DNA from: a virus
Strand: one strand, 5' to 3'
Virus record (IMG/VR): IMGVR_UViG_3300020045_001036
Span: 1 to 64,000 of that record
Length of the DNA: 64,000 nt
How positions within the stretch are numbered: position 1 is the first letter of the stretch; each line of letters opens with the position of its first letter. The notes beneath the pieces are model-generated. The model was not told where the DNA came from, searched no databases, and saw only the letters and a list, made by a program, of their open reading frames with translations. Positions 3,227 to 61,755 of the stretch are shown here, piece by piece. The translations under genes were made by a program, and so were the position numbers.

Positions 3227-4456
3227 TTAAGATATACCATCAGTATCAGCAACAAAACTAGAAGTTAGTTCCTGATCTGTATCATCAGCTCCAAAAGTAG
3301 CAGCTCCACCAAAGTCATTAGCTAGAGGATTAAAGCCTTTACCAGCTAACATAACATCTAACATAGTTGCAAAAGCAGCTGCTGTTACAGTGTCACCATT
3401 AGGTATTGCAACTATTGTTGCTTCATTGTTGAAAAATTGTTCCCATCCACCTTCTGATTGTTCATCATATGTTAGTATGTATTGAGTATACTTTTCAGTC
3501 TTAACTGCATTGTAATTAATATCATTTGCAACACCATTTAATGTAGACAATCTGTAAGGAGAGTCAATCCAGCCATTAGCTTCATATTCTAATTGTTTGA
3601 TATCATACCCAGAACCTTCCTCAAAAATAGCCTCTTGAATTACAGTAAAAGTACTATTATTTTGGAAACCAATTACTGGAGAAGTTATAACTACAGATTC
3701 TCTAGGATAAAAGTATTTCAAGTTTATAGAATTAAAATCTTTTGCTACTTGGGTGATAGTAGTGATTTGTATATCTGTGTATACATAATCTGCTGTATCT
3801 ACTTGCAATTTATTAAATGCAATAAGTGCATCTACTTCAGCTTCTGTAACTACATCTCCTGCAGTTTTAGCAGCTACTCCTGGAATTGCTAAAGCAGCAA
3901 TGTCAGTTCTTGCTATAGCCTCAGCTTTAACTAGAGCATGTGGTTCACTATTAATTTGAAATACCAAATCTTTAGTAATATAGTTAGCATCACTAGAAGG
4001 ACATTGAGTGCTACAAAGATCTGTTGCAGGAGTTTTAGTAATATACGTTTGTGTATATTGGTTATACCCTTGGCTTCTATAAATCTCTTGATTTCTCATC
4101 TCAAGTTTAACACCATATTCAGTTTCACTTTCAGCTAAATAATCACCTAACTTTACTATCATTGCTTGACCAGGGTTATAAGGTCTAACACTTGCGTATT
4201 TTATATTTTTATTTTGAATGGAACTTCCTGAAGATTTGGCAATATTGTCAATTACAGTATCACCATCTAAATCAAGACCTACACCTATGTAAAAATTTCT
4301 AATATTAGTATCAGCGGCACCTATAGATAAACCCGTATTCCCATCAAAGAAACCTATTTGTCCTACACCTAAAGCGGTAGGTTTTGAACCAGAGGCCAAT
4401 AGCCCTTGATTATCTTTAGAAACGAGTACTTTATATACATCATTATTTCTACTCAT
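3227..4456 (-). CDS. crAss-like conserved virion protein (auxiliary capsid protein-like)
   Basis: Third gene downstream of MCP, as in the crAss-like capsid module; EEGSGYDIKQLEY motif. Confidence 0.6.
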   Translation of the reverse strand: MSRNNDVYKVLVSKDNQGLLASGSKPTALGVGQIGFFDGNTGLSIGAADTNIRNFYIGVGLDLDGDTVIDNIAKSSGSSIQNKNIKYASVRPYNPGQAMIVKLGDYLAESETEYGVKLEMRNQEIYRSQGYNQYTQTYITKTPATDLCSTQCPSSDANYITKDLVFQINSEPHALVKAEAIARTDIAALAIPGVAAKTAGDVVTEAEVDALIAFNKLQVDTADYVYTDIQITTITQVAKDFNSINLKYFYPRESVVITSPVIGFQNNSTFTVIQEAIFEEGSGYDIKQLEYEANGWIDSPYRLSTLNGVANDINYNAVKTEKYTQYILTYDEQSEGGWEQFFNNEATIVAIPNGDTVTAAAFATMLDVMLAGKGFNPLANDFGGAATFGADDTDQELTSSFVADTDGIS

Positions 4457-27850: not shown

Positions 27851-29488
27851 ATGAGTAAATCAAATACAAAACTCGCAAGTACCATAGGTACACTAAAGCC
27901 TAAACCTGCACTAGTTGCATCTAAGGCTATTCCAAAACCCGATACTACAAATATATCGGGCCATTCTGCTTATACTCAAGATAAATGGAGGAGATTATTG
28001 ACAATATTGAATACATCAAAGTTACAATCCCAATACTATAGAAGTGAATCTGCTACATTGAAAGATTTACACACTTTAATTGCTGATTGTGCTCAAGAAA
28101 ATTTATATTTAACTTGTCAATGCATTGTCTATTCTAGATGTGTAGGAGAAGGTCTTAGGACTATATCCCATGCTGCATCTGTATTTATATCCTCATATTT
28201 AGCTGGCGCTGAATTCTCAAAGAGATTTTACTCTCAATGGGATAAAGGTAAAAAGCAAGGTGGCGTTATATTTAGACCAGATGATATGTCTGAAATTATG
28301 CAAGGTTTTATTGCTTTGAATACTTCAACAGAATCCAGTCCTAAACTAACTAATGCAATGAAAAAAGGTTTTGCTAACGCTATTGAATCTTATGATTCCT
28401 ATCCGTTATTAAAATACAAATCTTCACTGATTGACGTTATAAATCTAGTTAGACCGAGTTCAGCTAGATCTAAAGCTACTGTTGAGGTGAATAATGAATC
28501 TATTAAAACAATAGATGCTATTATGAGAGGCCTTAAAGTGTCTGCTGACACATGGGAAGTAAATCAAGTAAAAGCTGGCCAAATTGTTGCTGAAGCTGTT
28601 AAAGAAGGTAAAGTTGATATTATTGAAGCTAAAACTATTTTAACAGATGCTAAAGCAGAAAATTGGGATGAACTGTTATCTAATGATAAATTAGGGATTC
28701 TAGCCGCTATTAGGAATATTAGAAATATTCTATTAAACAATCCTAAAAAATCTACAATAGCTACATTAGATACTCTATTATCTAATCCGGATAGAATTAG
28801 AGCTGGTAAAATATTCCCGTATCAATTAGATATGGCAAATGAACTTATCATGCAAGAATTTCCACATAATCCAGATGCTAGACAGTTACAAGTAGCATTA
28901 CTTAAAGGCTACATGCATGCTATACCTAATCTTGCTGCTATTCTACCGGGTAGGAATGTCGTATTTTTAGACCAATCTGGTTCTATGGATAAAGTAATTA
29001 GATATGGTACTAAAAATGGTTCACAAAGCTGTTCTAAAAAAGCATCAATGCTAGCTGCTACCATAGCGTTAGCTACTAATGCTGACATTATTAGATTTGG
29101 TTCCAATGCAATGTACACTAATTACAGTTCTGTTGTAGATGTGTTTACACTAGCAGGACAATTAGATAACCCAAGAATGGGTGGTACTAGCTTATCGAGT
29201 GCTTGGAAGTTAGCTTCAAAGAAAGAAATTGGATATGATAGAGTTTTTATCTTATCTGATAATGAATGTAATATAGGATCTTCTTATGATAGATACAAAC
29301 AGTATGTAGAAAAAGTTGGTGATCCTTATATATATTCAGTAGATCTTGCAGGATATGGCACTGATTGTATGGCGGGAGACAAAGTAAAGTATTTTTATGG
29401 TTATGGTATGGCTATGTTTGAAGATATTGCTAAATTAGAGTATAATCCTGATCACCATATGGATAAAGTTAAACAAATAATAATCTAA
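27851..29488 (+). CDS. rsr: Ro60/Rsr-like TROVE + vWA domain RNA-binding protein
   Basis: TTN.SG..AY N-terminus, RPDDM, LLKY, DTWE, LAAIRNIRNI, KIFPYQ, MIDAS DQSGSM, GGT, ILSDNE. Confidence 0.9.
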   Translation: MSKSNTKLASTIGTLKPKPALVASKAIPKPDTTNISGHSAYTQDKWRRLLTILNTSKLQSQYYRSESATLKDLHTLIADCAQENLYLTCQCIVYSRCVGEGLRTISHAASVFISSYLAGAEFSKRFYSQWDKGKKQGGVIFRPDDMSEIMQGFIALNTSTESSPKLTNAMKKGFANAIESYDSYPLLKYKSSLIDVINLVRPSSARSKATVEVNNESIKTIDAIMRGLKVSADTWEVNQVKAGQIVAEAVKEGKVDIIEAKTILTDAKAENWDELLSNDKLGILAAIRNIRNILLNNPKKSTIATLDTLLSNPDRIRAGKIFPYQLDMANELIMQEFPHNPDARQLQVALLKGYMHAIPNLAAILPGRNVVFLDQSGSMDKVIRYGTKNGSQSCSKKASMLAATIALATNADIIRFGSNAMYTNYSSVVDVFTLAGQLDNPRMGGTSLSSAWKLASKKEIGYDRVFILSDNECNIGSSYDRYKQYVEKVGDPYIYSVDLAGYGTDCMAGDKVKYFYGYGMAMFEDIAKLEYNPDHHMDKVKQIII

Positions 29489-42443: not shown

Positions 42444-43511
42444 ATGTATGGTTATAAAGAGTTATCACCTCTAACAAATGAGGATATCTTAAATGAAGTA
42501 TCTGAAGAAGATATTTTCAAAATAATCATTAAGGAACCTATATTAAAAGATAAAGGGGCCCTTTATAGAGCCCCTTATAGAGAAGATAGTAACCCAGAAT
42601 GTTACTTTGAAAATTATAATGGTGTACTTACATTTGTAGATTTTGCAGATTATCAAAGTAGTAAAAACTGCTTTATGTTTCTGCAAAGAGTGTTAAAACT
42701 AACACATAATGAAGTACTACAATACATATATAGTCATTTTAATCTTGGTACAGGTGATAGCAAGTTTAGATTAAAAGATAAACAAGAAAATGACTATGTA
42801 GAAGAAGAGAAATTAGTAAAATCCTTTAAGGAAAGAACCATCACCATCTTACCAAGAGAGTTTGGGCACAAAGATAAGCAATTCTGGTCACAATATGGTA
42901 TAAGTAAAGAAAATTTAATTCAAGATGGAGTTATAGCTATACAAATGTATAGATCAACTTCTAAATATGGTAAGTATTTTACCATATCTTGTATGGACGA
43001 ATCTTATGCTTATACTAAATTTGTTACTCTTAAGGGTAAAATAAAACCAGGGAAGGTTAAGATCTATAGACCACATGCAGGTAAGGATGCCAAATGGTTT
43101 ACTAACTGTAATCAAAATGATATAGGGTCTTTAGAGAAATTACCTACTGAAGGAGATTTACTTCTTATTACTAAAGCTTATAAAGATTGTAGAATTGCTG
43201 CAAACTTTGGTATAATATCTTGTTGGTTTCAAGCAGAAGGTATATTTCCGAGTAAAGAAATTCTCTTAGAATTATGTATTAGATTTAAAAAAATCATAGT
43301 ATGGTTTGATAATGATAGTACAGGTATAGCTCATAGTGCTAGGTTAGTATCTATTATTAATAATATTGTCCCTGATAAGGCAAGTTTAATGATGGTGCCA
43401 CCAAAACTATTAAAAGAATCTGTGAAAGACCTATCAGATTTTTATGCAAAGAAAGGCAGAGAAAAAACAATTAAATTCCTCTTAGATAGAGGTATAACAA
43501 TAAATATATAA
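42444..43511 (+). CDS. DNA primase (TOPRIM, crAss-type)
   Basis: PYREDSNP, ITKAYKD, FDNDSTG, KDLSD. Confidence 0.85.
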   Translation: MYGYKELSPLTNEDILNEVSEEDIFKIIIKEPILKDKGALYRAPYREDSNPECYFENYNGVLTFVDFADYQSSKNCFMFLQRVLKLTHNEVLQYIYSHFNLGTGDSKFRLKDKQENDYVEEEKLVKSFKERTITILPREFGHKDKQFWSQYGISKENLIQDGVIAIQMYRSTSKYGKYFTISCMDESYAYTKFVTLKGKIKPGKVKIYRPHAGKDAKWFTNCNQNDIGSLEKLPTEGDLLLITKAYKDCRIAANFGIISCWFQAEGIFPSKEILLELCIRFKKIIVWFDNDSTGIAHSARLVSIINNIVPDKASLMMVPPKLLKESVKDLSDFYAKKGREKTIKFLLDRGITINI

Positions 43512-43875: not shown

Positions 43876-44295
43876 ATGAGAGTTATTAAAGTATATTCAA
43901 CAGTAGGTGCATCAGGAGAAGTTGTAACAAATGTAGAAACATTAAGAGAATTGAAGCCAATTCTAACAAGTAAAGGTATTGATATTACTGGTATGAAACT
44001 AGTGGTAGGGGAAACAAGAAATGAGTTATCTATTGATGAAGCAGTTCTTCCAACGGGGGATTTCAAATTATATTTGATGCCTCAAAAGACTAAATCTGGT
44101 AGCCTTGAGGATCAAGTAGAAGAAGTTGAAAGTATTGTGTATAGAATTGAAGGTAAGTTAGATACTGTTTTATCTATATTACAAAAAGGAGTAGGAGCTT
44201 CTAGCAGCCCATCTTTAAAAGTTCTAAGAAGTGCAGAAGATGAAGCAGCTATGAGAGATATGGCAGCATTATCTGGTGAAAACAGAGAATGGTAA
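43876..44295 (+). CDS. Ubiquitin-like (beta-grasp) protein precursor
   Basis: 75-aa domain ending KTKSG, plus a 64-aa extension; first gene of the E2/JAB/E1 cluster. Confidence 0.7.
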   Translation: MRVIKVYSTVGASGEVVTNVETLRELKPILTSKGIDITGMKLVVGETRNELSIDEAVLPTGDFKLYLMPQKTKSGSLEDQVEEVESIVYRIEGKLDTVLSILQKGVGASSSPSLKVLRSAEDEAAMRDMAALSGENREW

Positions 44296-44303
44296 TAATA
44301 ACT

Positions 44304-44345
44304 AAGAGAGAGGCTATCCATTAGGGTGGTCTCTTTCTTTTTTTT
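44304..44345 (+). terminator. Intrinsic terminator between Ubl and E2
   Basis: AAGAGAGAGGCTATCC-ATTA-GGGTGGTCTCTTTCTT followed by a T-run. Confidence 0.7.
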
Positions 44346-44354
44346 AACTACAAC

Positions 44355-45557
44355 ATGAATATAGAAATATTAGAAAGAAAGTTAAGAACTGGGTCTAGAT
44401 CTAGAGATTTTCAATGGTATAGAAAATTGTTTGTAAAAGATCGATTGTATATAGGAGCTGATCCTATGACTGCGGCAGTTTTTGAACATTTTAGACTAGC
44501 AGTAAAAACTGTAGAAGAAATATACCCGGGAGCTTGGGATATAGAATTTGGTGTGGATAGTTATCAATACCTAGATAATAAAGTTATAATAAATCTTAGA
44601 GGTATAAATATAAAATTTCCAGAAGTTACAATAAGAAATTCTGTAAGAAAAAGTCATTTAATTAAAGATCTATTTATATTGACTAGATTTAGAATCTATG
44701 ATAATAAATTAAGAATAGAAGGTGTGTATGGTACCAGAACTACTTTAACCTATGCAGAATATAATAGTAGATACCTACATAGTCACCTAAATAAAAATAG
44801 AATAGATCCTTCGTATGAACATTTTTATTTCCAAAAATTCTGTACAGGATCTGGTTCTATTAATATTGCTATGGCGGATTTGAATGCCCAAGGATTTAAT
44901 GCTGAAAGATTTATAAGTTATCTTTTAAATTTAGATACATTAGCTTCATGGGAATCTTTAGAGGGAGTACCTTATGTAAAGATAGCTAGTATTAATTCTT
45001 TAGAAGAAGGTACACAAATGTATAACTCAGCTAGAAGTGATGTTGCAAAAATGTTTATTACTGCTTTAAAAAGATTTGCAACTAGTGTTTATAAACCGGA
45101 AATTGATTTTATGTTAGAACACTCTGGAGTATCTCTTGCAGATAATGATAGGTATAAAGAATTTTTACACAGAGTGCCTTTAACAGACACAGATAAGAAA
45201 TACTTATTATGCTTTAAGAGTGAAGAGGGTGTATATTACTCTTATGGACAAACTCCAAGAGCTGCACCATTACTTTTATATCCTAATAAATATCTATTTC
45301 AAGGAGAAGAAATAGAAATTAAAATAACAAATCCTCCAGAAAATGCAACTACTGAAATACAGTATGAGTTTCATCCAAAAATTAAATTAGAAATTAAAAA
45401 ACAATTAGAATATGCAGCCAATAAAGCAATCCTTAGAAAGACTACAGTTGACAGATACAAAAATTCAACTAGTGATATCAGAGAGAATCCTCAACCAGAT
45501 CCAGTACCTGTGCCAACAGATAGCGAAAGTGGAGTGGAGTGGGATATTGTATTATAG
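44355..45557 (+). CDS. E2-like (UBC fold) conjugating enzyme candidate
   Basis: YLHSHL...FC163TGSG resembles the E2 HPN...C motif; operon context. Confidence 0.6.
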   Translation: MNIEILERKLRTGSRSRDFQWYRKLFVKDRLYIGADPMTAAVFEHFRLAVKTVEEIYPGAWDIEFGVDSYQYLDNKVIINLRGINIKFPEVTIRNSVRKSHLIKDLFILTRFRIYDNKLRIEGVYGTRTTLTYAEYNSRYLHSHLNKNRIDPSYEHFYFQKFCTGSGSINIAMADLNAQGFNAERFISYLLNLDTLASWESLEGVPYVKIASINSLEEGTQMYNSARSDVAKMFITALKRFATSVYKPEIDFMLEHSGVSLADNDRYKEFLHRVPLTDTDKKYLLCFKSEEGVYYSYGQTPRAAPLLLYPNKYLFQGEEIEIKITNPPENATTEIQYEFHPKIKLEIKKQLEYAANKAILRKTTVDRYKNSTSDIRENPQPDPVPVPTDSESGVEWDIVL

Positions 45558-46626
45558 TATAAATGGGTCAATTAAAGATCCTGGTGCTATGATATTAACA
45601 GTAGAAGATATTCTACCAATGAATAAAGGTACACAAGCTTACACAGAATATAATTTAGATGAAAGAGTTATCGATTATATGATGGATAATGAAACTATGG
45701 AAAAAGGTTGGAAAATGGGGCACATACATAGCCATAATACCATGGGAGTATTCTTTAGTGGTACAGATTGGTCTGAACTAGAAGATAATGCACCACATCA
45801 TAATTTCTATTTATCTCTTATTGTAAACAACTTTATGGACTTTTGTGCTAAAGTATGTTTCATATCTGAAGTAAAAGGTACTAAAGATTTTGAGTTCATG
45901 GCTAAAGATGAGGAAGGTAATGAATATGTGTATATGGCCAAACCTTATGAAGTTAAACAAAAGAAACTAATAGTATTTGACTGTGATATTAAATCACCAG
46001 TATCAGCTATAGCAATAGAAGAAAGTTTCAGAACTAAAGTAACAGGTATTATTACAGATGCAGAAAAGAAAGCTGCAGCACTTGTAGCAGCTAGAGCTGC
46101 TAATCCATCTACTACATCTTATGCTGGATGGGATGGAGGACAAAGAGGTGTTATTCAAGACCCTAAGAAACATATGGGTAAAGTTATTCCAATGACTCCT
46201 GCACATGGCTCAGAGATTAAAAGATGGACACAAGCAGATTTTAGTTCTTCTGTAAAAACATCTGTGGGAGATGCACAAGATTTAGAAGATACAATAGAAG
46301 ATTTTGCTCAACATATACTATTATTAGGTAAAGATTTGGAAACTTTTGTAGACTTAGAAGATGTATGTGAACATTATGCTAAATATAAAGTGTCCCATGA
46401 TTTTGTAGCGGGAGAAGTTGTAAAACAATATTTTGAGTTGTATAGTAGTTTCTTTAAAGATTCTAAAGAAGAAGATGAGATGACTGCATTTATAGTTAAC
46501 ACTGAACTAGTAATAGATGAGTATAGACATGAAGTTAAAATGGCAGATTCTGACGATGTATCCGGATTACTTACTAAAGTAGCTGATAGTTTAGATATTA
46601 TGCTATCTGCATTTAAAACAATTTAG
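45412..46626 (+). CDS. JAB/MPN+ metalloprotease
   Basis: JAMM motif E41...H106-S-H108-x7-S116-x2-D119. Confidence 0.88.
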   Translation: MQPIKQSLERLQLTDTKIQLVISERILNQIQYLCQQIAKVEWSGILYYSINGSIKDPGAMILTVEDILPMNKGTQAYTEYNLDERVIDYMMDNETMEKGWKMGHIHSHNTMGVFFSGTDWSELEDNAPHHNFYLSLIVNNFMDFCAKVCFISEVKGTKDFEFMAKDEEGNEYVYMAKPYEVKQKKLIVFDCDIKSPVSAIAIEESFRTKVTGIITDAEKKAAALVAARAANPSTTSYAGWDGGQRGVIQDPKKHMGKVIPMTPAHGSEIKRWTQADFSSSVKTSVGDAQDLEDTIEDFAQHILLLGKDLETFVDLEDVCEHYAKYKVSHDFVAGEVVKQYFELYSSFFKDSKEEDEMTAFIVNTELVIDEYRHEVKMADSDDVSGLLTKVADSLDIMLSAFKTI

Positions 46627-46627
46627 T

Positions 46628-46741
46628 ATGAAATGTGAACATTGTAAAAAAGAAAAAGAGACAGTAGAAACAAGACCTACCAGAAATGGAGATTGTAACT
46701 ATTGTGAAGAATGTTATGAGGTACAAATATTAATGAGTTAA
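46628..46741 (+). CDS. 37-aa zinc-finger microprotein (not in ORF track)
   Basis: MKCEHCKKEKETVETRPTRNGDCNYCEECYEVQILMS fills the JAB-E1 gap exactly. Confidence 0.55.
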   Translation: MKCEHCKKEKETVETRPTRNGDCNYCEECYEVQILMS

Positions 46742-46744
46742 AAT

Positions 46745-47470
46745 ATGAATTTAGAACAAGCAGGTAGATTTAAAGATGCACCATGGTTCCCTCTAGATGA
46801 GGTAAATGTAATTGTAGGTGGTGTAGGTGGTATAGGTTCATGGTTAACATTAATGTTATCTAGAGCCGGATTTATACCAATGGTGTATGATTTTGACACA
46901 TTTGAGATACATAATATGTCAGGTCAGTTAGTACCGGAAAGATTAATAGGTACAATTAAAGTAGATGCAGTAGCAGAAGTAGTAAAAGAATTTACTGGAA
47001 CTACGATACATACCTTCAATGAGAAGTATACAGCTGAGTCAATGTCTCATCACTATGTATTCTCTGGGTTTGATAATATGCAAGCTAGAAAGGATATGTT
47101 TAAAGCTTGGTGTGATTATGTAGTAGATTGGCAAGCTGAAGGGCATAAAGCTAAAATGTTAGACACTACATATCTTCAAGACATACCAATCTTTATAGAT
47201 GGTAGACTCTTAATGGAGCAAATGCAGATATTCTGTGTTACTCCAGATAGAATTGAAGACTATAAGAAACATTTGTTTGATGATGCTGAGGTAGCAGAAG
47301 CTCCTTGTACATTGAAACAAACATCACATTCAGCAGCTATGATAGCTTCTCATATGGTAGGCTTCTTTACTAACCACATGACTAATGTATATGCTAAGGA
47401 TGTGATTAGAAATGTTCCATTTCAATGGGAATACTTTATTCCTCTTGATTTAATAACAGTAGAAGAATGA
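46745..47470 (+). CDS. ThiF/E1-like adenylating enzyme
   Basis: GVGGIGS, DFD..E.HN, K, FDN..AR, DGR, APC188T. Confidence 0.9.
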   Translation: MNLEQAGRFKDAPWFPLDEVNVIVGGVGGIGSWLTLMLSRAGFIPMVYDFDTFEIHNMSGQLVPERLIGTIKVDAVAEVVKEFTGTTIHTFNEKYTAESMSHHYVFSGFDNMQARKDMFKAWCDYVVDWQAEGHKAKMLDTTYLQDIPIFIDGRLLMEQMQIFCVTPDRIEDYKKHLFDDAEVAEAPCTLKQTSHSAAMIASHMVGFFTNHMTNVYAKDVIRNVPFQWEYFIPLDLITVEE

Positions 47471-48147
47471 CAGCATCACAAATAATTTACATTCCAGATC
47501 TTTCCAGTTATGTATATACCAACTCTACTTACTTAACTCATTTTAGAGGTTCTAAAACAGGAACCTCTGATTGTAACTTTTATGTGCCACTACATGCTAT
47601 AATGGCACATGAATTACTTACATTTGATGTTGGTATTAGAGTGATGGAATATAAAACTTGTAGTATACCTATAGACTATCAAAGGTCATGTTTTAGTAGA
47701 TATGATGCATTTTTAAGTATACTACTAAATGGTACTTATGCAGGAAGTTTTAAGTACTCTGTAGCAGGAGAGATCTGCTATGTTATAGTACAAAGAGGTA
47801 TTATTTTAAATACTGAAGGAGAGATTCTTATGTGCTTAGCACTAGATAGGGATTATGTGATGAATACAGATACAAATACAATTAGGAATAACCCTGATGC
47901 AAAGAAAGGTGCTGTATTTATTAGTAATGACTATGTAAACAATCCTAAATATAAGAATTTAAAAAAGAAAATAGACGCAATATATGTAGCTGAATGTTTA
48001 GCTTTAGGTATGGATGTTATCCAAACTGAGAAGATAGATAAATGGCTATATAAGAACAACTTTAGTGCAATGAAATTTAAAACAGTTGCTGCACAGCAAA
48101 AGTTTTTAAAAGAAGATGTGCCTAAAGAAATGATAAAAGAATTATAA
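47467..48147 (+). CDS. Hypothetical protein coupled to E1
   Basis: ATGA overlap with the E1 gene. Confidence 0.6.
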   Translation: MTASQIIYIPDLSSYVYTNSTYLTHFRGSKTGTSDCNFYVPLHAIMAHELLTFDVGIRVMEYKTCSIPIDYQRSCFSRYDAFLSILLNGTYAGSFKYSVAGEICYVIVQRGIILNTEGEILMCLALDRDYVMNTDTNTIRNNPDAKKGAVFISNDYVNNPKYKNLKKKIDAIYVAECLALGMDVIQTEKIDKWLYKNNFSAMKFKTVAAQQKFLKEDVPKEMIKEL

Positions 48148-53357: not shown

Positions 53358-54067
53358 CAGAAATACAAAAATTTAAAGTAAAAGCTATATCAGTAATGTT
53401 ACTTGTAATATTTGGAATTGTGTACTTATTATTACAGGTACCTTCAAATCCTAAAACTAATGGTACAGAACATGTAGCTGTAGCTCCCAAAGTATGGAAA
53501 GATAAGGATAGTGCCATTCATCATGTGAGTGCTCCTATTATGGCTAGCAATCCTAAAGAATTTCTTAAGATTCAAGCACAAGATAAAATCATTCAAGATC
53601 TACAAAAAGAAGTAACTAAGTATAAGAGACAACTAGGTAAGAAAGGATCTGCTACTGTAGTGCAAGGTACTAACAGTATAGATACTGTATATGTAAAAGT
53701 AATGACACCTAGTCCTAATTTTATATGGAGTGATAGTATACATAATAAGTACATTGATTGGACTTATACAGTAAATAAAGATTCCACTAAAGCTCAAATA
53801 GGATTTAAGCTTAAAACTGTTGATGACTTAGTTATTATTAACAAAGTACAATCTAATGGTTGGTTTAAAGCTAAAACAGTAGTTACAGAAGTGATTAATA
53901 AGAACCCTTATTCTAAGACAGTTAATTCTGCTACTTTTAATATAGATACTAAGGTCCCTAAAAGACCTTGGAGTGTAGGTCCATACGTAGGATATGGATT
54001 TAGTGATGAATTAACACCTAAAGTTAATTTTGGTGTAAGTTTACAATATGGATTTATAAGATTCTAA
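53354..54067 (+). CDS. Membrane-anchored protein (spanin-like candidate)
   Basis: N-terminal TM, coiled coil, C-terminal beta strands ending YGFIRF. Confidence 0.5.
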   Translation: MTEIQKFKVKAISVMLLVIFGIVYLLLQVPSNPKTNGTEHVAVAPKVWKDKDSAIHHVSAPIMASNPKEFLKIQAQDKIIQDLQKEVTKYKRQLGKKGSATVVQGTNSIDTVYVKVMTPSPNFIWSDSIHNKYIDWTYTVNKDSTKAQIGFKLKTVDDLVIINKVQSNGWFKAKTVVTEVINKNPYSKTVNSATFNIDTKVPKRPWSVGPYVGYGFSDELTPKVNFGVSLQYGFIRF

Positions 54068-54576
54068 TGAGCACTTTTTATATTTCAGACCTTCATCTTG
54101 GCCATTTAAATATGGCCATTAAAAGAGGTTTTGCAACAGTGGAAGAACATGATAATCATATTATTAAATGTTGGAATAAGGTAGTACATAAAAAGGATAC
54201 TGTTTATATTCTAGGAGATCTTACAATGGAAAGAGATACTTATAGTATCTATTTACCTAAATTACTAGGGTATAAGAAAGTTATACTTGGTAATCACGAT
54301 AAACCTCAACATATACCTTCATTACTTAGATATGTGAATAGTGTATGTTCTTGTCTTTATGTTAAAAATAAAGAGTTTGGTAAATTTGTGTTATCACACA
54401 TACCAATACATCCTACAGAGTTATCTTATAGATATGGTACTAATATACATGGCCATGTTCATGAGAAAACATTAGAAGACAGTAGGTATATTAATGTATC
54501 TTGTGAAGTAGTGGATTTTACTCCACAAACATTAGAACAATTAATAGATAGACAATTTAAAAAAGAATTAATATGA
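54067..54576 (+). CDS. Metallophosphoesterase
   Basis: SDLHLGH, LGD, GNHD, SHIP, HGHVH. Confidence 0.85.
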   Translation: MSTFYISDLHLGHLNMAIKRGFATVEEHDNHIIKCWNKVVHKKDTVYILGDLTMERDTYSIYLPKLLGYKKVILGNHDKPQHIPSLLRYVNSVCSCLYVKNKEFGKFVLSHIPIHPTELSYRYGTNIHGHVHEKTLEDSRYINVSCEVVDFTPQTLEQLIDRQFKKELI

Positions 54577-54776
54577 GATATTTAGTAACAGAAGAATTAA
54601 AAACTTCTTTCCTTTTGAAGGTAAAGAGGTTTTTTAGATTAGCAAAACCTCGAATGGAATTTTTTGCAAATTCTTATGCTACAGGATTTTATCCTGAAGA
54701 CAAGTCCTACTATATGTGTAGGAATACAGTAAAAATAATTAAAAGAGCAAAACAAAGATTAGTATGGAAGCAGTAA
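54573..54776 (+). CDS. Hypothetical protein
   Basis: Coupled 67-aa ORF. Confidence 0.45.
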   Translation: MRYLVTEELKTSFLLKVKRFFRLAKPRMEFFANSYATGFYPEDKSYYMCRNTVKIIKRAKQRLVWKQ

Positions 54777-55933
54777 TTTTAGTGACAATAAAAAATAAAA
54801 TTCCTTTATTTAAGGGGAAAGATAAGGCAACTTCAATTGAGTTAATTGAATTAGAAGAAGTAGGTTATGAACTAGTTTCTCAAAAAGATTTATATGCGGT
54901 AGGAGATAAAGCTATATTAGTACAGCCAGATTATTGTGTAAGTGATACAGAATTGTTTGAATCGTTTATTAGACCAGATGGTAATGAGTCCAAATCTATG
55001 TTGGGTAAAGTAGGAGGATTACCAAGAAGAATTAGAGCTAAGAAATTTACTCTATCTAAAGAACCTGAAGGAGCTCCCGTATATTCTAATGGTATCTTAC
55101 TGAGATACAAAGATGTAGTTAGATATATTGGTAAAGAAATGGATAGCACTACTATTACAGCAGACTTAGGAATCACTAAATATGAAGAACCAGAAGCTGG
55201 TACTCCAGGGTTAGCTGGTAGAGGTGGTAGAGATTTTCCAACATGGTTGTATAAAACAGATGAAACTAACATCAATAACTTGTGGAATCATTTAGAGAAA
55301 GTTGTTAAGTGGCCTGTATTCCTTGTGGGTACAGAAAAAGAAGATGGTTCTAGTATTACTATAGGTAGAAAGGATATGGATGAATACGTATGTTCTAGAA
55401 ACTTAATTAAACCTTTTGTAGAGACTAGATTTAGTCATATGAGAGATCTTACACTTAAGGAAAGATTTAATAAGTTCTTTACTGGTTTAACACCTAACTT
55501 AGCTACTTATAAAAAGGTACCTACTACAGACACATTTGTATTGCAAGGTAAGCCTTACTTAGAACAATTAGAAGGTTATGATAATTTCTTCTTAAGAGGA
55601 GAGTTAAATGGTTCTAGTGCTAAAGGATCCGGAAATAAAAACAATCCCGCAGCTAAAAGAGAATTAAACATCAAATTCTTTGGATTAGATTATATCAATG
55701 AAGTTGGTATAGCTGTTAAAGCTAGTAAAGAACAATTTGATAAGTTCTGTGTAATCAATGAACTACCTCAAGTTAAAACAGTGTTTAGAAAGAAATTCAA
55801 AAACAAAGCAGCTCTTGTAAAAGAATGTGAAGCTTATTTCAAAAAGAATCTTATTGAAGGTATTGTTGTTAGAACTTTGGATAGCTCTTTTAGTGCTAAA
55901 TACATGAATCTAGAGTATGATTCTAAAAAATAA
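54764..55933 (+). CDS. RNA ligase, Rnl2/DRB0094 family
   Basis: N-terminal OB-like domain, LGITKYE, FP.W..KTDE, TEKEDGSS, RGELNG, EGIVVR, SAK. Confidence 0.85.
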   Translation: MEAVILVTIKNKIPLFKGKDKATSIELIELEEVGYELVSQKDLYAVGDKAILVQPDYCVSDTELFESFIRPDGNESKSMLGKVGGLPRRIRAKKFTLSKEPEGAPVYSNGILLRYKDVVRYIGKEMDSTTITADLGITKYEEPEAGTPGLAGRGGRDFPTWLYKTDETNINNLWNHLEKVVKWPVFLVGTEKEDGSSITIGRKDMDEYVCSRNLIKPFVETRFSHMRDLTLKERFNKFFTGLTPNLATYKKVPTTDTFVLQGKPYLEQLEGYDNFFLRGELNGSSAKGSGNKNNPAAKRELNIKFFGLDYINEVGIAVKASKEQFDKFCVINELPQVKTVFRKKFKNKAALVKECEAYFKKNLIEGIVVRTLDSSFSAKYMNLEYDSKK

Positions 55934-56605: not shown

Positions 56606-57433
56606 ATGCTAATAGATTTAACACAAGGTTATGGTGAGTTTAGTACTCACAAGCTATTCCAATTTCCTGATGGTTCAATTAAATTTGAATTATCAGTGTA
56701 CATAGATCCTTCTGACAGTTTTAGAGGAGATACTATTGTAAAAACTAGGTTAAGAAATCATGAGGATATTTTCACTCTAGCATTAGTAAAAGATGTATTA
56801 GACAGAAGATTACCTACACAAACACATAGAGTTAAGATAGATTATATGATGTATCAACAAGATGATAGATTATTTGATATTAAAGAATCTTTTGGTCTTA
56901 AAGTTGTATGTAAATTCATTAATGATATGAAGTGGGATGAAGTAATTATATTTGCTCCACATTCTGATAAAGTAGAATTTATTGACAAGGTAAGAATTGT
57001 AGATAACGAATTATTTGTAGCTCAGGCTTTAAGAGAAATAGAATTTGGGCATGGAGCTGTATGGGTAATACCTGATGCTGGAGCTTTTAAAACTCAAATG
57101 AAGATGATTCAAAAAATGCATCATAAAAGATTTATTTCTTGTTCTAAGTCTAGAGATTCTAAAACAGGTGTCATAACTACTAGTATACCAGATGGGGATT
57201 TAGGTGGACAAGATTGTTTTATAGTAGATGATATTTGTTTAGGTGGAGCTACATTTGTAGCTATAGCTGAGAAATTAAAAGCGCAGAACTGTGGTAAAAT
57301 ATATCTTGTAATATCTCATGGTATATTTAATAGAGGTTTAACACATTTATTTGATGAATTTGAATATATCTATACTACAAATTCTATCTGTGATTATGAA
57401 GGATCTGGTAACTTAAAAGTATTCAAGATATGA
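56606..57433 (+). CDS. Ribose-phosphate pyrophosphokinase-like protein (NARP1 Adps candidate)
   Basis: FPDG, QQDDR, PHS, PDAGA, K.RD..TG, IVDDICLGGATF, SHGIF. Confidence 0.85.
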   Translation: MLIDLTQGYGEFSTHKLFQFPDGSIKFELSVYIDPSDSFRGDTIVKTRLRNHEDIFTLALVKDVLDRRLPTQTHRVKIDYMMYQQDDRLFDIKESFGLKVVCKFINDMKWDEVIIFAPHSDKVEFIDKVRIVDNELFVAQALREIEFGHGAVWVIPDAGAFKTQMKMIQKMHHKRFISCSKSRDSKTGVITTSIPDGDLGGQDCFIVDDICLGGATFVAIAEKLKAQNCGKIYLVISHGIFNRGLTHLFDEFEYIYTTNSICDYEGSGNLKVFKI

Positions 57434-57579: not shown

Positions 57580-57767
57580 TGAAAGACTATAATAAGCTGG
57601 TTAGAGAAATAGAAAAAGATCCTGCTTATGTCCTTAATAAATCTGGAAGAAGGAATACGATGAAGTTAACTCATATTGAGACTAATCAAATGTATTCCAT
57701 TCATCCGGGTAATAACGCAGTAATGCCATTAAAAAGATGGATGGCTAAAATAAAAAACAATGAGTAA
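57576..57767 (+). CDS. Small basic protein, HicA-like fold candidate
   Basis: Helix-3 strands-helix pattern, KLTH...SIHP. Confidence 0.4.
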   Translation: MMKDYNKLVREIEKDPAYVLNKSGRRNTMKLTHIETNQMYSIHPGNNAVMPLKRWMAKIKNNE

Positions 57768-58548
57768 AAGATTTGTAATGGGAGACATTCATGGGAATTA
57801 TAAAGCTCTTATGCAATGTCTAGAAAGATCTGGTTTTGATTATGAAAAAGATACACTAATCCAATTAGGAGATGTAGTAGATGGTCATTCAGAATCTTTT
57901 GAAGTAGTAGAGGAACTACTTAAAATAAAAAACCTCATAAGTATTAAAGGTAATCATGATGATTGGTTCTTTAAGTGGATACAAACTGGAATTAATCCTT
58001 CGGGATGGGCACAAGGTCAAAAGGCCACGGGATTAAGTTACTTAACTCAAGCTAAACCAGCTTGGCCTTGGATGGTTTCTAATGAAGATTTATCAGGATT
58101 TACAGAAGCTATAGTAGTAACAGATATACCTTACAGACATAAAGAATTCTTTAAAAATCAGTTATCTTATTATAGAGATGAAGAGAATAATCTCTTTATC
58201 CACGGTGGATTTAATAGACATTTCTATCTTAAAGAACAAATTCAAGAAACTTTTTGGTGGGATAGAGACTTATGGAATGCGGCTCTATCTTTTGGGCACA
58301 TGTCAGAAATGGAAGGTACACCCAAGTATAAGTTTAAGATGATAGAGAACTTTAAAGAAGTTTTTATTGGTCATACAACTACAGAATGTTGGAAGAAAAC
58401 AGTACCTATGCATGCAGCTAATATCTGGAATTTAGATACTGGTGCTGGAATGTTTGGTAAGTTATCTATCATGAATGTAGACACTAAAGAATATTTCCAA
58501 AGTGATACAGGAAAAGAGTTGTATCCAGAATATACAGGAAGAAACTAG
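57760..58548 (+). CDS. Ser/Thr protein phosphatase-like metallophosphoesterase
   Basis: GDIHG, LGDVVD, GNHD, HGG, GHT, LDTGAG. Confidence 0.88.
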   Translation: MSKRFVMGDIHGNYKALMQCLERSGFDYEKDTLIQLGDVVDGHSESFEVVEELLKIKNLISIKGNHDDWFFKWIQTGINPSGWAQGQKATGLSYLTQAKPAWPWMVSNEDLSGFTEAIVVTDIPYRHKEFFKNQLSYYRDEENNLFIHGGFNRHFYLKEQIQETFWWDRDLWNAALSFGHMSEMEGTPKYKFKMIENFKEVFIGHTTTECWKKTVPMHAANIWNLDTGAGMFGKLSIMNVDTKEYFQSDTGKELYPEYTGRN

Positions 58549-59600
58549 TGGAACAAACAGTTTATAAAATAGATAGTAAAGGTAAATTAAGATTTATTAC
58601 TATTTCAGCAGTAGATGATACTATAGTACAAATAAGTGGATTACTGGGTGGTAACCCAGTTTCCAATATAAGTAAGTGTGAAGGAAAAAATATAGGAAAA
58701 ACTAATTCTACAACACCTCAAGAACAAGCTATAGTAGAAACTGCAGCTAAGATTAAGAAAAAACTTGATGAAGGTTACTATATAACTACAGAAGAAGCTA
58801 TTCAAGGTACTCTTATCTTACCAATGTTAGCTAAGGAATTTCAAGATGATAAAGTAATTTATCCTTGTTATGTACAACCTAAACTAGATGGTATGAGATG
58901 CTTAAAGGAGAGAGCTTCTATGAGATCCAGAAAAAATAAAGAGATAGAAACTGTAGGCCATATAGCCAAAGAAGATAGTGGAGATATTATTCTAGATGGA
59001 GAATTATATTCTCATGGATTAAGTTTTCAAGAAAATATGAAGCTTATTAAGAAGTATAGAAAGAATGTGACTGAAGCCATAAGATATCATGTGTATGATG
59101 TAGTTCTAGATAAACCTTTTAGAGAAAGAATGATAATCTTACAAGAATTACTACTTACTTTAAAATCTAATGTTATACTACTTGTACCTACATATACGGT
59201 GAATAATAAGAAGGAGTTAGAAGCATATCATATTCAGTTTATACAAGAAGGATATGAAGGTACTATAGTAAGACATACAGAGGCTTCTTATGAAATTAAT
59301 AAAAGAAGTTCACAATTGCTTAAGTATAAAGATTTCTTAGATGAAACTTTTACTATTGTAGATATATTACCTTCTGAAAGTAGACCGGAGCAAGGTGTTA
59401 TACATTGCGTAGGAATAGGTAATCAAAACCAAGCTTTTACTTTTGGTTGTGGTATGAAATTTTCTCATGCTGAAAGAGAAGAATTTTTAATTAATAAAAT
59501 AGACTACATAGGAAAGACTGCTGAGGTAAGATTCTTTGAACTTACTGATAATGGTATACCAAGATTTCCTGTATGTGTAGGTATAAGGTTAGATAAATAA
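58548..59600 (+). CDS. ATP-dependent DNA ligase
   Basis: PMLA, QPKLDGMR, LDGELY, YEGTIVR, LLKYK, PRFP. Confidence 0.92.
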   Translation: MEQTVYKIDSKGKLRFITISAVDDTIVQISGLLGGNPVSNISKCEGKNIGKTNSTTPQEQAIVETAAKIKKKLDEGYYITTEEAIQGTLILPMLAKEFQDDKVIYPCYVQPKLDGMRCLKERASMRSRKNKEIETVGHIAKEDSGDIILDGELYSHGLSFQENMKLIKKYRKNVTEAIRYHVYDVVLDKPFRERMIILQELLLTLKSNVILLVPTYTVNNKKELEAYHIQFIQEGYEGTIVRHTEASYEINKRSSQLLKYKDFLDETFTIVDILPSESRPEQGVIHCVGIGNQNQAFTFGCGMKFSHAEREEFLINKIDYIGKTAEVRFFELTDNGIPRFPVCVGIRLDK

Positions 59601-59909: not shown

Positions 59910-60199
59910 CAGCAACAGAATTTAATACTAAATACGATAAGTTCATAGAGAGAAGAACTTACTTGAATAAGTACAGTGAACTTATAGAACAAAAATTTGA
60001 TGGATTAGAGTTTGATATTCCTGAAGTAACAGAGTATTTAGATGTGGCATTCACACCTTTAGTTCTAATGCCAGGATTTACATTTACTCAAATTAAGTTA
60101 AAATTTGGAAGTGCTAGAGTTTATACTACAGCCCCTGGGGATATTAATCTTACAATAGAAAGAACAATCGATAAAATAATCAAAGAATTAAAAGTATGA
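59906..60199 (+). CDS. Conserved phage hypothetical protein
   Basis: QIKLKFGSARVY motif. Confidence 0.55.
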   Translation: MTATEFNTKYDKFIERRTYLNKYSELIEQKFDGLEFDIPEVTEYLDVAFTPLVLMPGFTFTQIKLKFGSARVYTTAPGDINLTIERTIDKIIKELKV

Positions 60200-61755
60200 T
60201 AGCAATGATAGCAGCCTTCCTTGCAGATGGCTACAAATTTGGCCATGCGCCAATGTTTCCTGTTGGAACAGAATATGCATATAGTAACTTTACTCCTAGA
60301 AGTAATAAATACGCACCTAAAGGATGTGATGAAGTAGTAGTATTTGGTACTACTTATGCAATGAAACAAATTCATAATGCATTTAAACATAGTTTCTTTG
60401 ATATTCCTAAGAGTCTTGTATTAGATCAAATTGAAGAAGTGTTAACTCCATACTTTGGTATGCCGTATGATTCAACTCCATTTGCTAAATTACATGATTT
60501 AGGTTATTTACCTATCAGGGTTAAAGCTTTACCGGAAGGTAGCTTATGCCCTATGAAAGTACCTATGTTGACTATAATAAATACTCATAAAGAGTTTTAT
60601 TGGTTACCTAACTTCTTAGAAACTATTCTTAGTAATTCTATGTGGAAACCAATGACATCTGCTACTATAGCATTTGGTTACAAGAAACTGTTAACTAAAT
60701 GGGCTTTAGCTACAGATAAGGATAATGTCGGATTTGTAGACTTTCAAGCACATGATTTCTCTATGAGAGGACTTGATAGTGTAGATGCTACTATTGCTTC
60801 AGGATTGGGCCATTTAACTTCATTTAAAGGAACAGATAGTCTACCTGCTATTATAGGAGCTAGACAATATTACAATGCTACTGGATTTGTAGCTGGTAGT
60901 GTACCTGCTTCTGAGCATTCAGTAATGTGTGCAGGAGGTAAAGAATCTGAGATTGAAACATTCAGAAGACTACTTAGAACTTTTGCTAAAGCTCCTGTAT
61001 TATCTGTAGTTTCAGATACATGGGACTTATGGAAAGTAGTAGGACCTGGTGGATATGTAGAGCAACTTAAAGAAGAGATACTAGCTGGTAATACTAAGTT
61101 AGTTATTAGGCCTGATAGTGGTGATCCAGTAGATATTATCTGTGGAGAACAAGTATTTGAGCATAAAGGTAAACTTTGTGTCGAAAGAGAAGTTAATCAT
61201 TTTCCAGGTTTAGAAACAATACCATTAACTGATGAAAGAGTTTCTACTAATCAAGTAAAAGGAGTAATTGAACTTCTATGGGATACTTTTGGAGGTACCG
61301 TTAATGAACAAGGTTATAAAGTATTACACCCTAAGATTGGAGCTATCTATGGTGATAGTATTACTCTTGATAGAGCTGAAGCTATATGTTCTAGATTAGC
61401 AGCTAAAGGATTTGCTAGTACTAATATTGTATTAGGAGTAGGTTCTTATACCTATCAAATGAATACTAGAGATACTTTTGGATTTGCTATGAAAGCTACT
61501 TGGGTTCAAGTAAATGGATTAGGTATTAGTATCTTTAAAGATCCTATTACTGATGATGGTATGAAGAAATCTGCTAGAGGTTTAATTCAAATTATCAAAC
61601 AAGATGGAAAACTTAAACTTAGAGATGGTATTGGTTGGAAAGAAGAGAGAGAAGGAGAATTAAAAGATCTTTATGTAGATGGAGTATTTTCTAATAAAGT
61701 AACTCTAGATCAAATTAGAGAGAAACTAAGTGATAAAGTATTAGGATGGACATAA
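60196..61755 (+). CDS. Nicotinamide phosphoribosyltransferase-like protein (NARP1 Namat candidate)
   Basis: DGYKFGH, HDFSMRG, SVPASEHS, VSDTWD, IRPDSG, IYGDSIT, GVGSY, RDT..FAMKAT, KKSARG. Confidence 0.92.
   Translation: MIAMIAAFLADGYKFGHAPMFPVGTEYAYSNFTPRSNKYAPKGCDEVVVFGTTYAMKQIHNAFKHSFFDIPKSLVLDQIEEVLTPYFGMPYDSTPFAKLHDLGYLPIRVKALPEGSLCPMKVPMLTIINTHKEFYWLPNFLETILSNSMWKPMTSATIAFGYKKLLTKWALATDKDNVGFVDFQAHDFSMRGLDSVDATIASGLGHLTSFKGTDSLPAIIGARQYYNATGFVAGSVPASEHSVMCAGGKESEIETFRRLLRTFAKAPVLSVVSDTWDLWKVVGPGGYVEQLKEEILAGNTKLVIRPDSGDPVDIICGEQVFEHKGKLCVEREVNHFPGLETIPLTDERVSTNQVKGVIELLWDTFGGTVNEQGYKVLHPKIGAIYGDSITLDRAEAICSRLAAKGFASTNIVLGVGSYTYQMNTRDTFGFAMKATWVQVNGLGISIFKDPITDDGMKKSARGLIQIIKQDGKLKLRDGIGWKEEREGELKDLYVDGVFSNKVTLDQIREKLSDKVLGWT

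Follow-up and report, generated by a model that had tools for sequence, protein, structure and literature searches.

A candidate ubiquitin-like protein conjugation cassette in the replication module of crAss-like phages

[quoted passage not shown] In the present study a set of genes is described that may encode such a pathway on the side of the phage. It was found in a crAss-like phage, within positions 1-64,000 (hereafter the window, the whole 64,000-nt stretch of DNA that was analysed) of the 95,350-bp IMG/VR record IMGVR_UViG_3300020045_001036, a record in which direct terminal repeats are present. The anti-phage operons of Bil (bacterial ISG15-like) are described as BilA-BilB-BilC-BilD, encoding a Ubl, an E2, a JAB protease and an E1, respectively (summarised in PMC11601596; Chambers et al., PMC10557695). 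For type I Bub (6E.1), it was shown experimentally that the JAB of BubCD cuts the Ubl fusion BubAB after a conserved Gly (Ye et al. 2024, PMC11601596). The Bub E1 is a minimal homodimer-type ThiF/UBA5-like enzyme, and the system uses Tyr and Ser oxyesters without the Cys residues of E1 and E2 (PMC11601596). Among phages, the lambdoid and T1-like groups possess the tail assembly proteins TAPI, which is Ub-like, and TAPK, which carries JAB and NlpC/P60 domains (Iyer et al. 2006, PMC1779556).

The cassette of the window is located directly 3' of the primase gene (42444-43511) and a 104-aa open reading frame (ORF). Its features, with the basis of each assignment in brackets, are as follows:

43876-44295, + strand: Ubl precursor, 139 aa (beta-grasp model; invariant K73 and G75)
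44304-44349, + strand: terminator-like hairpin with a 16-bp stem and a 4-nt loop, then a T run (pattern scan; folding energy)
44355-45557, + strand: E2-like protein (E2L), 400 aa (AlphaFold2 (AF2) model; VIA-align; ESM Atlas; invariant H144 and C163)
45412-46626, + strand: JAB/JAMM metalloprotease, 404 aa (invariant JAMM motif; PADLOC JAB model)
46628-46741, + strand: zinc-ribbon-like ORF, 37 aa, CxxC...CxxCxxC (ORF listing)
46745-47470, + strand: minimal E1-like adenylating enzyme, 241 aa (Pfam ThiF above cut-off; invariant C188)
47467-48147, + strand: conserved fifth gene of the p226/gp75 family, 226 aa (homologue-built profile)

All ORFs and motifs listed in a preliminary description of this locus were found at the positions given there. 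The end that it gave, 48147, is the end of the 226-aa ORF (47467-48147) past the E1 gene, a fifth gene whose start overlaps the E1 stop and which had been missed at the time.

It is proposed here that the genes of the cassette specify a Bil/Bub-type pathway, run by the phage, for the conjugation of a ubiquitin-like protein, the steps of which are inferred from sequences and predicted models, and a probability of roughly 0.6 is given to this reading. A tagging pathway run by the phage had also been put forward in the preliminary description; the claim is supported for the Ubl, the JAB and the E1 by fold and motifs, and moderately for the E2 by a structural model and an invariant Cys/His pair. 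In favour of the proposal, the four genes co-occur in a fixed order in all 46 viral loci and in phage crAss001, and this order equals that of BilA-B-C-D.

The cassette can be compared with Bil as summarised in PMC11601596. Both would consist of four separate genes in the order Ubl-E2-JAB-E1, with a C-terminal Gly on the Ubl and without an E3, the choice of target in Bil being attributed to the E2; and thioester chemistry like that of Bil is suggested by the invariant Cys that the phage E1 and E2L each carry. The cassette differs from Bil in lying in the replication module of lytic-type phages, whereas Bil lies in a host defence island; in an E1 that is a 241-aa single adenylation domain, whereas BilD has an IAD-AAD-CYS architecture; in a Ubl with one beta-grasp domain and an extension predicted to be removable; in the conserved fifth gene after the E1; and in an E2L of 400 aa which is extended by a further C-terminal domain and whose sequence matches neither BilB nor any E2 model. 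With Bub it shares a Ubl made with a C-terminal appendage, a minimal E1, adjacent JAB and E1 genes whose stop and start usually abut, mirroring the BubCD fusion, an E2L for which BubB is among the structural matches (Z 5.1) and a Ser-His pair in E2L (S143 varies once in 174 members). In contrast to Bub, with its Ubl-E2 and JAB-E1 fusions, all four phage proteins are separate; the phage E1 (C188) and E2L (C163) each have an invariant Cys, there is no DUF6527/BubE protease, and the system is phage-borne.

Like the TAPI/TAPK pair, the cassette has a phage beta-grasp protein with a conserved C-terminal Gly and an extra domain, adjoined by a JAB predicted to cut at the Gly. That pair, however, belongs to the tail module and has no E1 or E2, whereas an E1 and a candidate carrier are present here, in the replication module. 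The likeness to ThiF/ThiS and MoeB/MoaD consists of an E1 of the same superfamily (Pfam ThiF) and a partner beta-grasp protein with a C-terminal Gly. It differs from these in that the phage genome is without a sulfurtransferase or downstream synthase, the E1 is without a CxxC zinc site, the Ubl ends in KSG with a long extension, and a JAB and a UBC-like protein are also there. By analogy, the cassette appears to work like a Bil/Bub-type pathway yet to belong to neither family.

A pattern scan yielded 46 IMG/VR loci with the E1, and the order primase-Ubl-E2L-JAB-E1 was kept in all of them (tblastn), the single absent Ubl being that of a locus at a contig end. The nearest cultured phages are those of Flavobacterium psychrophilum in the FpV4/Fpv1 group, and matches to the E1 protein were also obtained in the Bacteroides phages crAss001, DAC15, DAC17 and the PhiCrAssBcn series and in several 'uncultured phage cr' genomes. 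The order in crAss001 is primase gp80, gp79, gp78, gp77 (named 'metalloprotease domain'), gp76 (ThiF), gp75 and uracil-DNA glycosylase. Here gp79 shows KIKSG behind a Ubl-like N-terminus, gp78 reads YMHSH...PCTG...VESINGVP, gp77 has the JAMM motif and gp76 has the conserved Cys. The expectation of the preliminary description that similar genes occur in related crAss-like phages is thus borne out by the 46 syntenic viral loci, crAss001 gp79-gp76, DAC15/17 and the FpV4-type phages. It had also known of no functional description of such genes, and none was found in the full-text literature that was searched, the coverage of which leaves out most subscription journals.

Among one genome each for 185,579 prokaryote species, this type of E1 was detected on just 13 contigs, all of them in metagenome-assembled genomes (MAGs), and a search of 72,556 plasmids gave no tblastn match to the E1 at E 0.01. 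Since every MAG contig long enough to show the upstream genes has the phage synteny, the cassette is considered phage-owned and not a host defence island. It should also be noted that a full primase-Ubl-E2L-JAB-E1 set is present in a MAG of Puia sp. (Chitinophagaceae; DASYBV010000020.1, 283276-295956 of 373,651 bp), where it is explained either by the integration of a crAss-like prophage or by chimeric assembly.

The Ubl gene encodes a beta-grasp domain in residues 1-75 (43876-44100) which reads ...LMPQKTKSG75 (G75 codon 44098-44100) and is followed by a 64-aa helical C-terminal extension. In the AF2 model, with a predicted local distance difference test (pLDDT) score of 85 overall and >93 for residues 1-70, the elements follow in beta-beta-alpha-beta-beta order, the confidence falls at the KTKSG tail and the extension forms two long helices. 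When the model was compared with the PDB using Foldseek, the top 50 rows were all ubiquitin, NEDD8, ISG15, SUMO or UBX with a probability of 1.0, at template modelling (TM) scores of 0.6-0.7 and a root-mean-square deviation (rmsd) of 2.6-3.0 across 74-76 columns; with an alignment of this length, the Gly of the Ubl falls at the end of ubiquitin. A beta-grasp fold for 43876-44295 had been set beforehand as a point on which the proposal could be refuted, and both the confidence of the model and the restriction of its matches to the ubiquitin fold agree with that fold. No Pfam model matched the Ubl family and no Pfam domain was found in the extension.

Among 32 Ubl homologues, in an alignment covering the first ~75 residues, L51, L58, P59, F63, K73 and G75 are invariant, and the C-terminal motif is K-[TV]-K-[SA]-G. 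Beyond the Gly the homologues differ widely in sequence as well as in length, the latter ranging from a single residue (in a homologue of 79 aa in total) up to >260 residues. An invariant G75 followed by extensions of 1 to >260 residues would fit a Ubl precursor that is processed.

Between the Ubl and E2L genes lies the hairpin, with a folding energy of -23.1 kcal/mol and a z of -6.19 against 200 shuffles. A hairpin of -13 to -24 kcal/mol, mostly with a U run, is found at this position in 32 of the 34 relatives, its stem sequence differing from one to another, and in the two relatives without one the called start of the ORF probably ran into the spacer. As the structure is kept and the sequence is not, the hairpin fits a partial terminator giving more Ubl message than enzyme message. 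Such an excess of the Ubl transcript fits the expectation for a modifier that is consumed, as against enzymes that act catalytically.

The JAB protein carries E41 (codon 45532-45534) and an HSHx7SxxD motif at 45727-45768, corresponding to H106-S-H108-x7-S116-x2-D119. The JAMM motif, described earlier as intact, is invariant among 31 JAB homologues, in which E41, H106, S107, H108, S116 and D119 do not vary. The PADLOC JAB model (CBASS-type) matches residues 13-130 with an E of 5e-5, while Pfam Prok-JAB gives the JAB of the window 13.5 bits, under its cut-off of 25, and is matched by 30 of the 31 homologues, each below the cut-off (best E 2.9e-4). The JAMM part is followed by a variable linker and then by a conserved C-terminal helical domain. 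A stretch of 146 nt (45412-45557) is shared by the E2L and JAB genes, read in a different frame for each, and encodes both the disordered tail of E2L and the conserved N-terminus of JAB; in relatives, the E2L frame ends earlier, hence the overlap is shorter.

In Flavobacterium phage Fpv1 (KU599877, reverse complement; locus L001, 4025-5094), the JAB gene is interrupted by 1,056 bp of inserted sequence, which Fpv3, although 99.8% identical, does not have. The insertion falls exactly inside the JAMM codons, the upstream part ending ...WYVGH and the downstream part beginning IHSHNTMQVFFSGTD, and the public annotation of Fpv1 shows the split gene as two 'hypothetical proteins'. Within the insertion, positions 4025-4270 match Rfam Intron_gpI (E 2e-9) with 43.4 bits, where the gathering score is 50, and an antisense ORF of 250 aa has two LAGLIDADG-type motifs. 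The insertion is read as a group I intron, and its site counts in favour of the proposal. Introns of this group are typically found where the sequence of an expressed phage gene is conserved and critical for function.

The E1 protein matched Pfam ThiF (PF00899) with an E of 2.2e-13 and 50.4 bits, above the cut-off of 28.1. It has GGVGGIGS at residues 25-32 (46817-46840) and C188 at codon 47306-47308. Its homologues, 28 in number, are invariant at R8, G25/26/28/29, D49, D51, N57, Q61, K72, D110, N111, R115 and C188, with an FDNMxAR motif and APC[TS]xKQ[TS]SH around C188. The nucleotide-binding motifs and the Cys188 that had been reported from the window are therefore upheld by the ThiF match and by this conservation. 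The family is made up of a single domain of 225-245 aa without the paired CxxC zinc site. The E1 of the window has an insert of ~23 aa, and in relatives lacking it the Cys lies ~55 residues after the DN motif; from this spacing, Cys188 presumably falls in the region of the crossover loop and corresponds to ThiF Cys184 and MoeB Cys187.

In its sequence the E1 is equidistant from ThiF, MoeB, Cap2 E1-E2, BilD, PRTRC ThiF and UbaA, and lies below each family-specific cut-off. In NCBIfam it comes closest to ThiF models (8e-11), whose cut-offs it misses by far, and the PADLOC BilD model covers 83 residues only, with an E of 1.2e-5. A minimal Cys-bearing E1 of this type would stand between ThiF/MoeB and the conjugating E1s. 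For FpV4-type and crAss001-type phages alike, the name given to the protein in public records is 'thiamine biosynthesis protein (ThiF)' throughout; because a ThiS, ThiG or ThiH context is missing, this label is very probably a misannotation spread by similarity.

The E2L protein consists of a UBC/UEV-like domain (~13-216), an alpha/beta domain of ~150 residues, a long helix and a disordered tail, the alpha/beta domain and the long helix together spanning ~220-373. The AF2 model (pLDDT 80.5, predicted TM score 0.70; pLDDT 94-97 over residues 30-130) runs from a helix at 40-56 through a four-strand antiparallel meander at 61-132 and the HSH/C163 loop to further helices, which is the order of elements in UBC. 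Two motifs, H142-S143-H144 (H144 codon 44784-44786) and F162-C163-T164-G165 (C163 codon 44841-44843), are represented in this loop, HSH and C163 being placed between strand 4 (118-132) and the helix at 168-179. H144 and C163 would therefore sit in the loop after strand 4, where E2s have HPN and Cys. Across 174 E2L members H144, C163, E200, S201 and P206 are invariant in all, and S143 and N95 vary once each.

VIA-align was run with the E2L model against 48,161 PDB representatives and again on the top 1,000 of Foldseek. Proteins with UBC, UEV or RWD domains made up more than 40 of the top 50 rows, with ~90% of the target domains covered. Among them were the UEV of Tsg101 (Z 6.3, rmsd 3.8, 128 of 142 residues aligned), UBE2D2, E2S and UbcH10 as well as the bacterial BubB (Z 5.1) and Cap2 (Z 4.6). 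A search of ESM Atlas features with residues 30-220 returned Prok-E2_D in 28 of 30 named matches, with a score of 0.91 and 182-185 of 256 features shared. Foldseek of E2L against the PDB gave no significant match, a profile search found no match to PDB sequences, and Prok-E2_D itself (PF14460), tried at E up to 10 on the entire phage genome, had no match. Shorter relatives of E2L that stand alone were looked for and not found.

From these results, E2L is assigned with moderate confidence as a UBC-like domain with a Cys/His site in what the model suggests is the E2 position, fused to an extra domain and a long helix; as judged by sequence comparison, it falls outside every described E2 sequence family. 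The earlier assignment of 44355-45557 as an E2 with a UBC fold was thus retained in part, namely in the predicted UBC-like fold (Z 5-6.3) and the ESM Atlas look-alike, and found no support from hidden Markov models (HMMs) or hhalign. The family is a large one, with 3,251 clusters at 50% identity in a profile search of 1.84 billion representative proteins (E up to 0.001), and those clusters that have named sources are labelled 'hypothetical' and lie on contigs of phage size.

The pathway can be pictured as follows. The Ubl would be made as a precursor, its message probably in excess of that for the enzymes because of the terminator-like hairpin after its gene, and the JAB would cut after the invariant Gly75 (K-T-K-S-G) and take off the variable extension. 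A small, probably homodimeric E1 of the ThiF type would then adenylate the exposed carboxylate of Gly75 and probably load the Ubl on Cys188, from which it would be transferred to the invariant Cys163 of the UBC-like protein. As no E3 is conserved, the extra C-terminal domain of E2L probably picks the target. The Ubl would finally be joined to a lysine of a host or phage protein, a tagging that the JAB could also reverse. The naming of host defence proteins or of the replisome as targets is speculation.

Several observations weigh against this pathway, and most of them concern E2L. Its structural Z of 5-6.3 is under the level of 8 above which the aligner advises trust, although the matches fall within a single superfold, and UEV and RWD domains have the same fold without being catalytic. 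No match to an E2 family was obtained in Pfam (32 members, E up to 1), nor any match in NCBIfam or PADLOC, including the Bil and Cap2 models (E up to 1). An hhalign comparison with 11 Prok-E2_D proteins, taken from 401 Bacteroidota genomes, gave a probability of 0.3%; the sole local alignment, 11 columns long and not significant, pairs FCxGS with VCMG. The nucleophile of E2L need not be Cys163, because S143-H144 is near-invariant and Bub E2s use a Ser/His pair. There is no conserved E3 in the cassette, and E2L may not be needed for transfer at all, because Ubl systems with an E1 only exist, such as archaeal SAMPylation and Thermus TtuB. It is therefore conceivable, if on balance unlikely, that the Ubl is activated and conjugated by the E1 alone in the manner of those systems, and that E2L is the main substrate, an adaptor, or another enzyme merely resembling the UBC/UEV/RWD fold. 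The missing HMM or profile link to any E2 family favours this, as do Z values that non-catalytic UEV and RWD domains reach as readily as true E2s, and the invariance of E200 and S201, which canonical E2s do not explain. However, an invariant Cys with an invariant His upstream of it, in a loop that the model places after a four-strand meander, is the E2 arrangement, and E2L strictly co-occurs with E1, JAB and Ubl in the position of BilB, with E2 family D as its ESM look-alikes.

Alternatively, the cassette could serve mainly as counter-defence against Ubl-based immunity of the host (type II CBASS, Bil, Bub), with no general tagging programme; the phage JAB would strip host conjugates, while the Ubl, E1 and E2 would act as decoys or re-target host components. 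Among the models of the defence library, that of the CBASS-type JAB is closest to the phage JAB (5e-5) and those of Cap2 E1-E2 and BilD touch the E1, and known bacterial Ubl systems are anti-phage (PMC11601596). On the other hand, the cassette has a fixed place in the replication module of phages that are very divergent, as are their hosts, which span marine and freshwater Flavobacteriia and gut Bacteroides; it so resembles a core function and not a sporadic anti-defence gene; the complete, invariant sites of E1 and E2L would likewise argue for active conjugation, and a mainly counter-defensive role is considered improbable. It is slightly less probable again that the genes form a sulfur-carrier pathway of the ThiS/MoaD/QbsE/CysO type, in which the JAB trims, the E1 adenylates and a sulfurtransferase of the host makes the thiocarboxylate, with the sulfur ending in a cofactor, a tRNA or a DNA base. 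Such a pathway is suggested by the ThiF models as best NCBIfam matches of the E1 (8e-11, below cut-offs), by its public name 'thiamine biosynthesis protein' and by the sulfur carrier TtuB among the fold matches of the Ubl. E1, JAB and beta-grasp proteins are found together in sulfur transfer as well, and it is JAMM proteases that trim the sulfur carriers of the Qbs and CysO/Mec systems or release them. The 95,350-bp genome is, however, without a rhodanese, cysteine desulfurase, ThiG, MoaE or PP-loop thiolase: searches for Rhodanese, ThiG, MoaE, PP-loop ATP_bind_3 and Aminotran_5, which were positive in 11-14 of 14 control genomes, gave no match in the whole of it, so that the absence of sulfur-transfer genes reported earlier for the vicinity of the cassette extends to the entire genome. 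Moreover, the Ubl ends in KSG and not GG and its extension reaches >260 residues, the conserved UBC-like Cys protein would have no role in such a pathway, and the surroundings are replication genes. The Bil/Bub-type conjugation pathway is therefore retained as the preferred reading.

The 37-aa zinc-ribbon-like ORF had been counted as a part of the cassette in the preliminary description, and this was not upheld. No homologue was found in the 46 loci by tblastn, and in nearly all relatives there is no room for the ORF, the JAB gene ending directly before the start of the E1 gene or past it. It gave no family match in PADLOC or NCBIfam. As a tightly packed ORF it may well be a real gene, specific to this phage. 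A conserved E3-like or zinc module was considered for it and rejected, as the ORF is absent from all relatives.

The fifth gene was found directly 3' of the E1 in all but one of 30 loci with downstream sequence, using a profile built from its homologues which also detects gp75 of crAss001 (E 6e-29). With few invariant residues, the family is not enzyme-like in appearance, and it received no assignment from Pfam, PDB profiles or ESM Atlas. Its product could be a target, an adaptor or merely the next replication gene. Many homologues were observed to have long acidic, probably disordered tails ending in IDDTE, EDLPF or LPF, which are reminiscent of the C-terminal tips of single-stranded DNA-binding proteins; the copy in the window is without such a tail.

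Within ~19-62 kb of the window every long gene is on the + strand, and the cassette is surrounded by a replication and nucleotide-metabolism module, as determined by PHROG matches. The module includes a DNA polymerase, helicases, a DnaB-like helicase, a Sak4-like annealing protein and a primase, with a RusA-like resolvase, a MazG-like pyrophosphohydrolase, ThyX, a ribonucleotide reductase, RNA and DNA ligases, a phosphoribosyl pyrophosphate synthetase and a nicotinamide phosphoribosyltransferase further downstream. The location inside the replication module that was given in the preliminary description is consistent with these neighbours. Two of the downstream genes, for ribose-phosphate pyrophosphokinase (56606-57433; PHROG E 5e-57) and nicotinamide phosphoribosyltransferase (60196-61755; 4e-182), form an NAD-salvage pair, and such pairs have been discussed as a means against defences that deplete NAD. 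At 54067-55933 and 57760-59600 the module also encodes a phosphoesterase, an RNA ligase, a NinI-like phosphatase and an ATP-dependent DNA ligase, and a Ro60-like RNA-binding protein is encoded at 27851-29488. These four enzymes and the Ro60-like protein suggest a tool kit for RNA repair.

With slightly better than even confidence, it is suggested that crAss-like phages run a complete Ubl cascade of their own during infection and covalently tag host or phage proteins, by way of a Ubl made as a precursor, a JAB as its maturase, a minimal Cys-E1 and an E2 that is an orphan in sequence and has its target-binding domain built in. Few viruses of the human gut are more abundant than phages of this group, which are also common in aquatic Bacteroidota. 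The cassette is present in cultured systems, namely crAss001 with Bacteroides intestinalis, DAC15/17 with B. thetaiotaomicron and FpV4-type phages with Flavobacterium psychrophilum, and the question of conjugation is thereby directly testable. If true, a ubiquitin-type tagging pathway would for the first time have been shown to belong to a virus of bacteria, as a mirror image of the Bil, Bub and CBASS of the host. With E2L, the UBC-fold enzymes would gain a new sequence family, and a function would be given to four or five core genes now named 'hypothetical' or misnamed, as in the case of 'thiamine biosynthesis protein ThiF'. A conserved, phage-owned version of the pathway would reverse the picture of prokaryotic Ubl conjugation as defence only.

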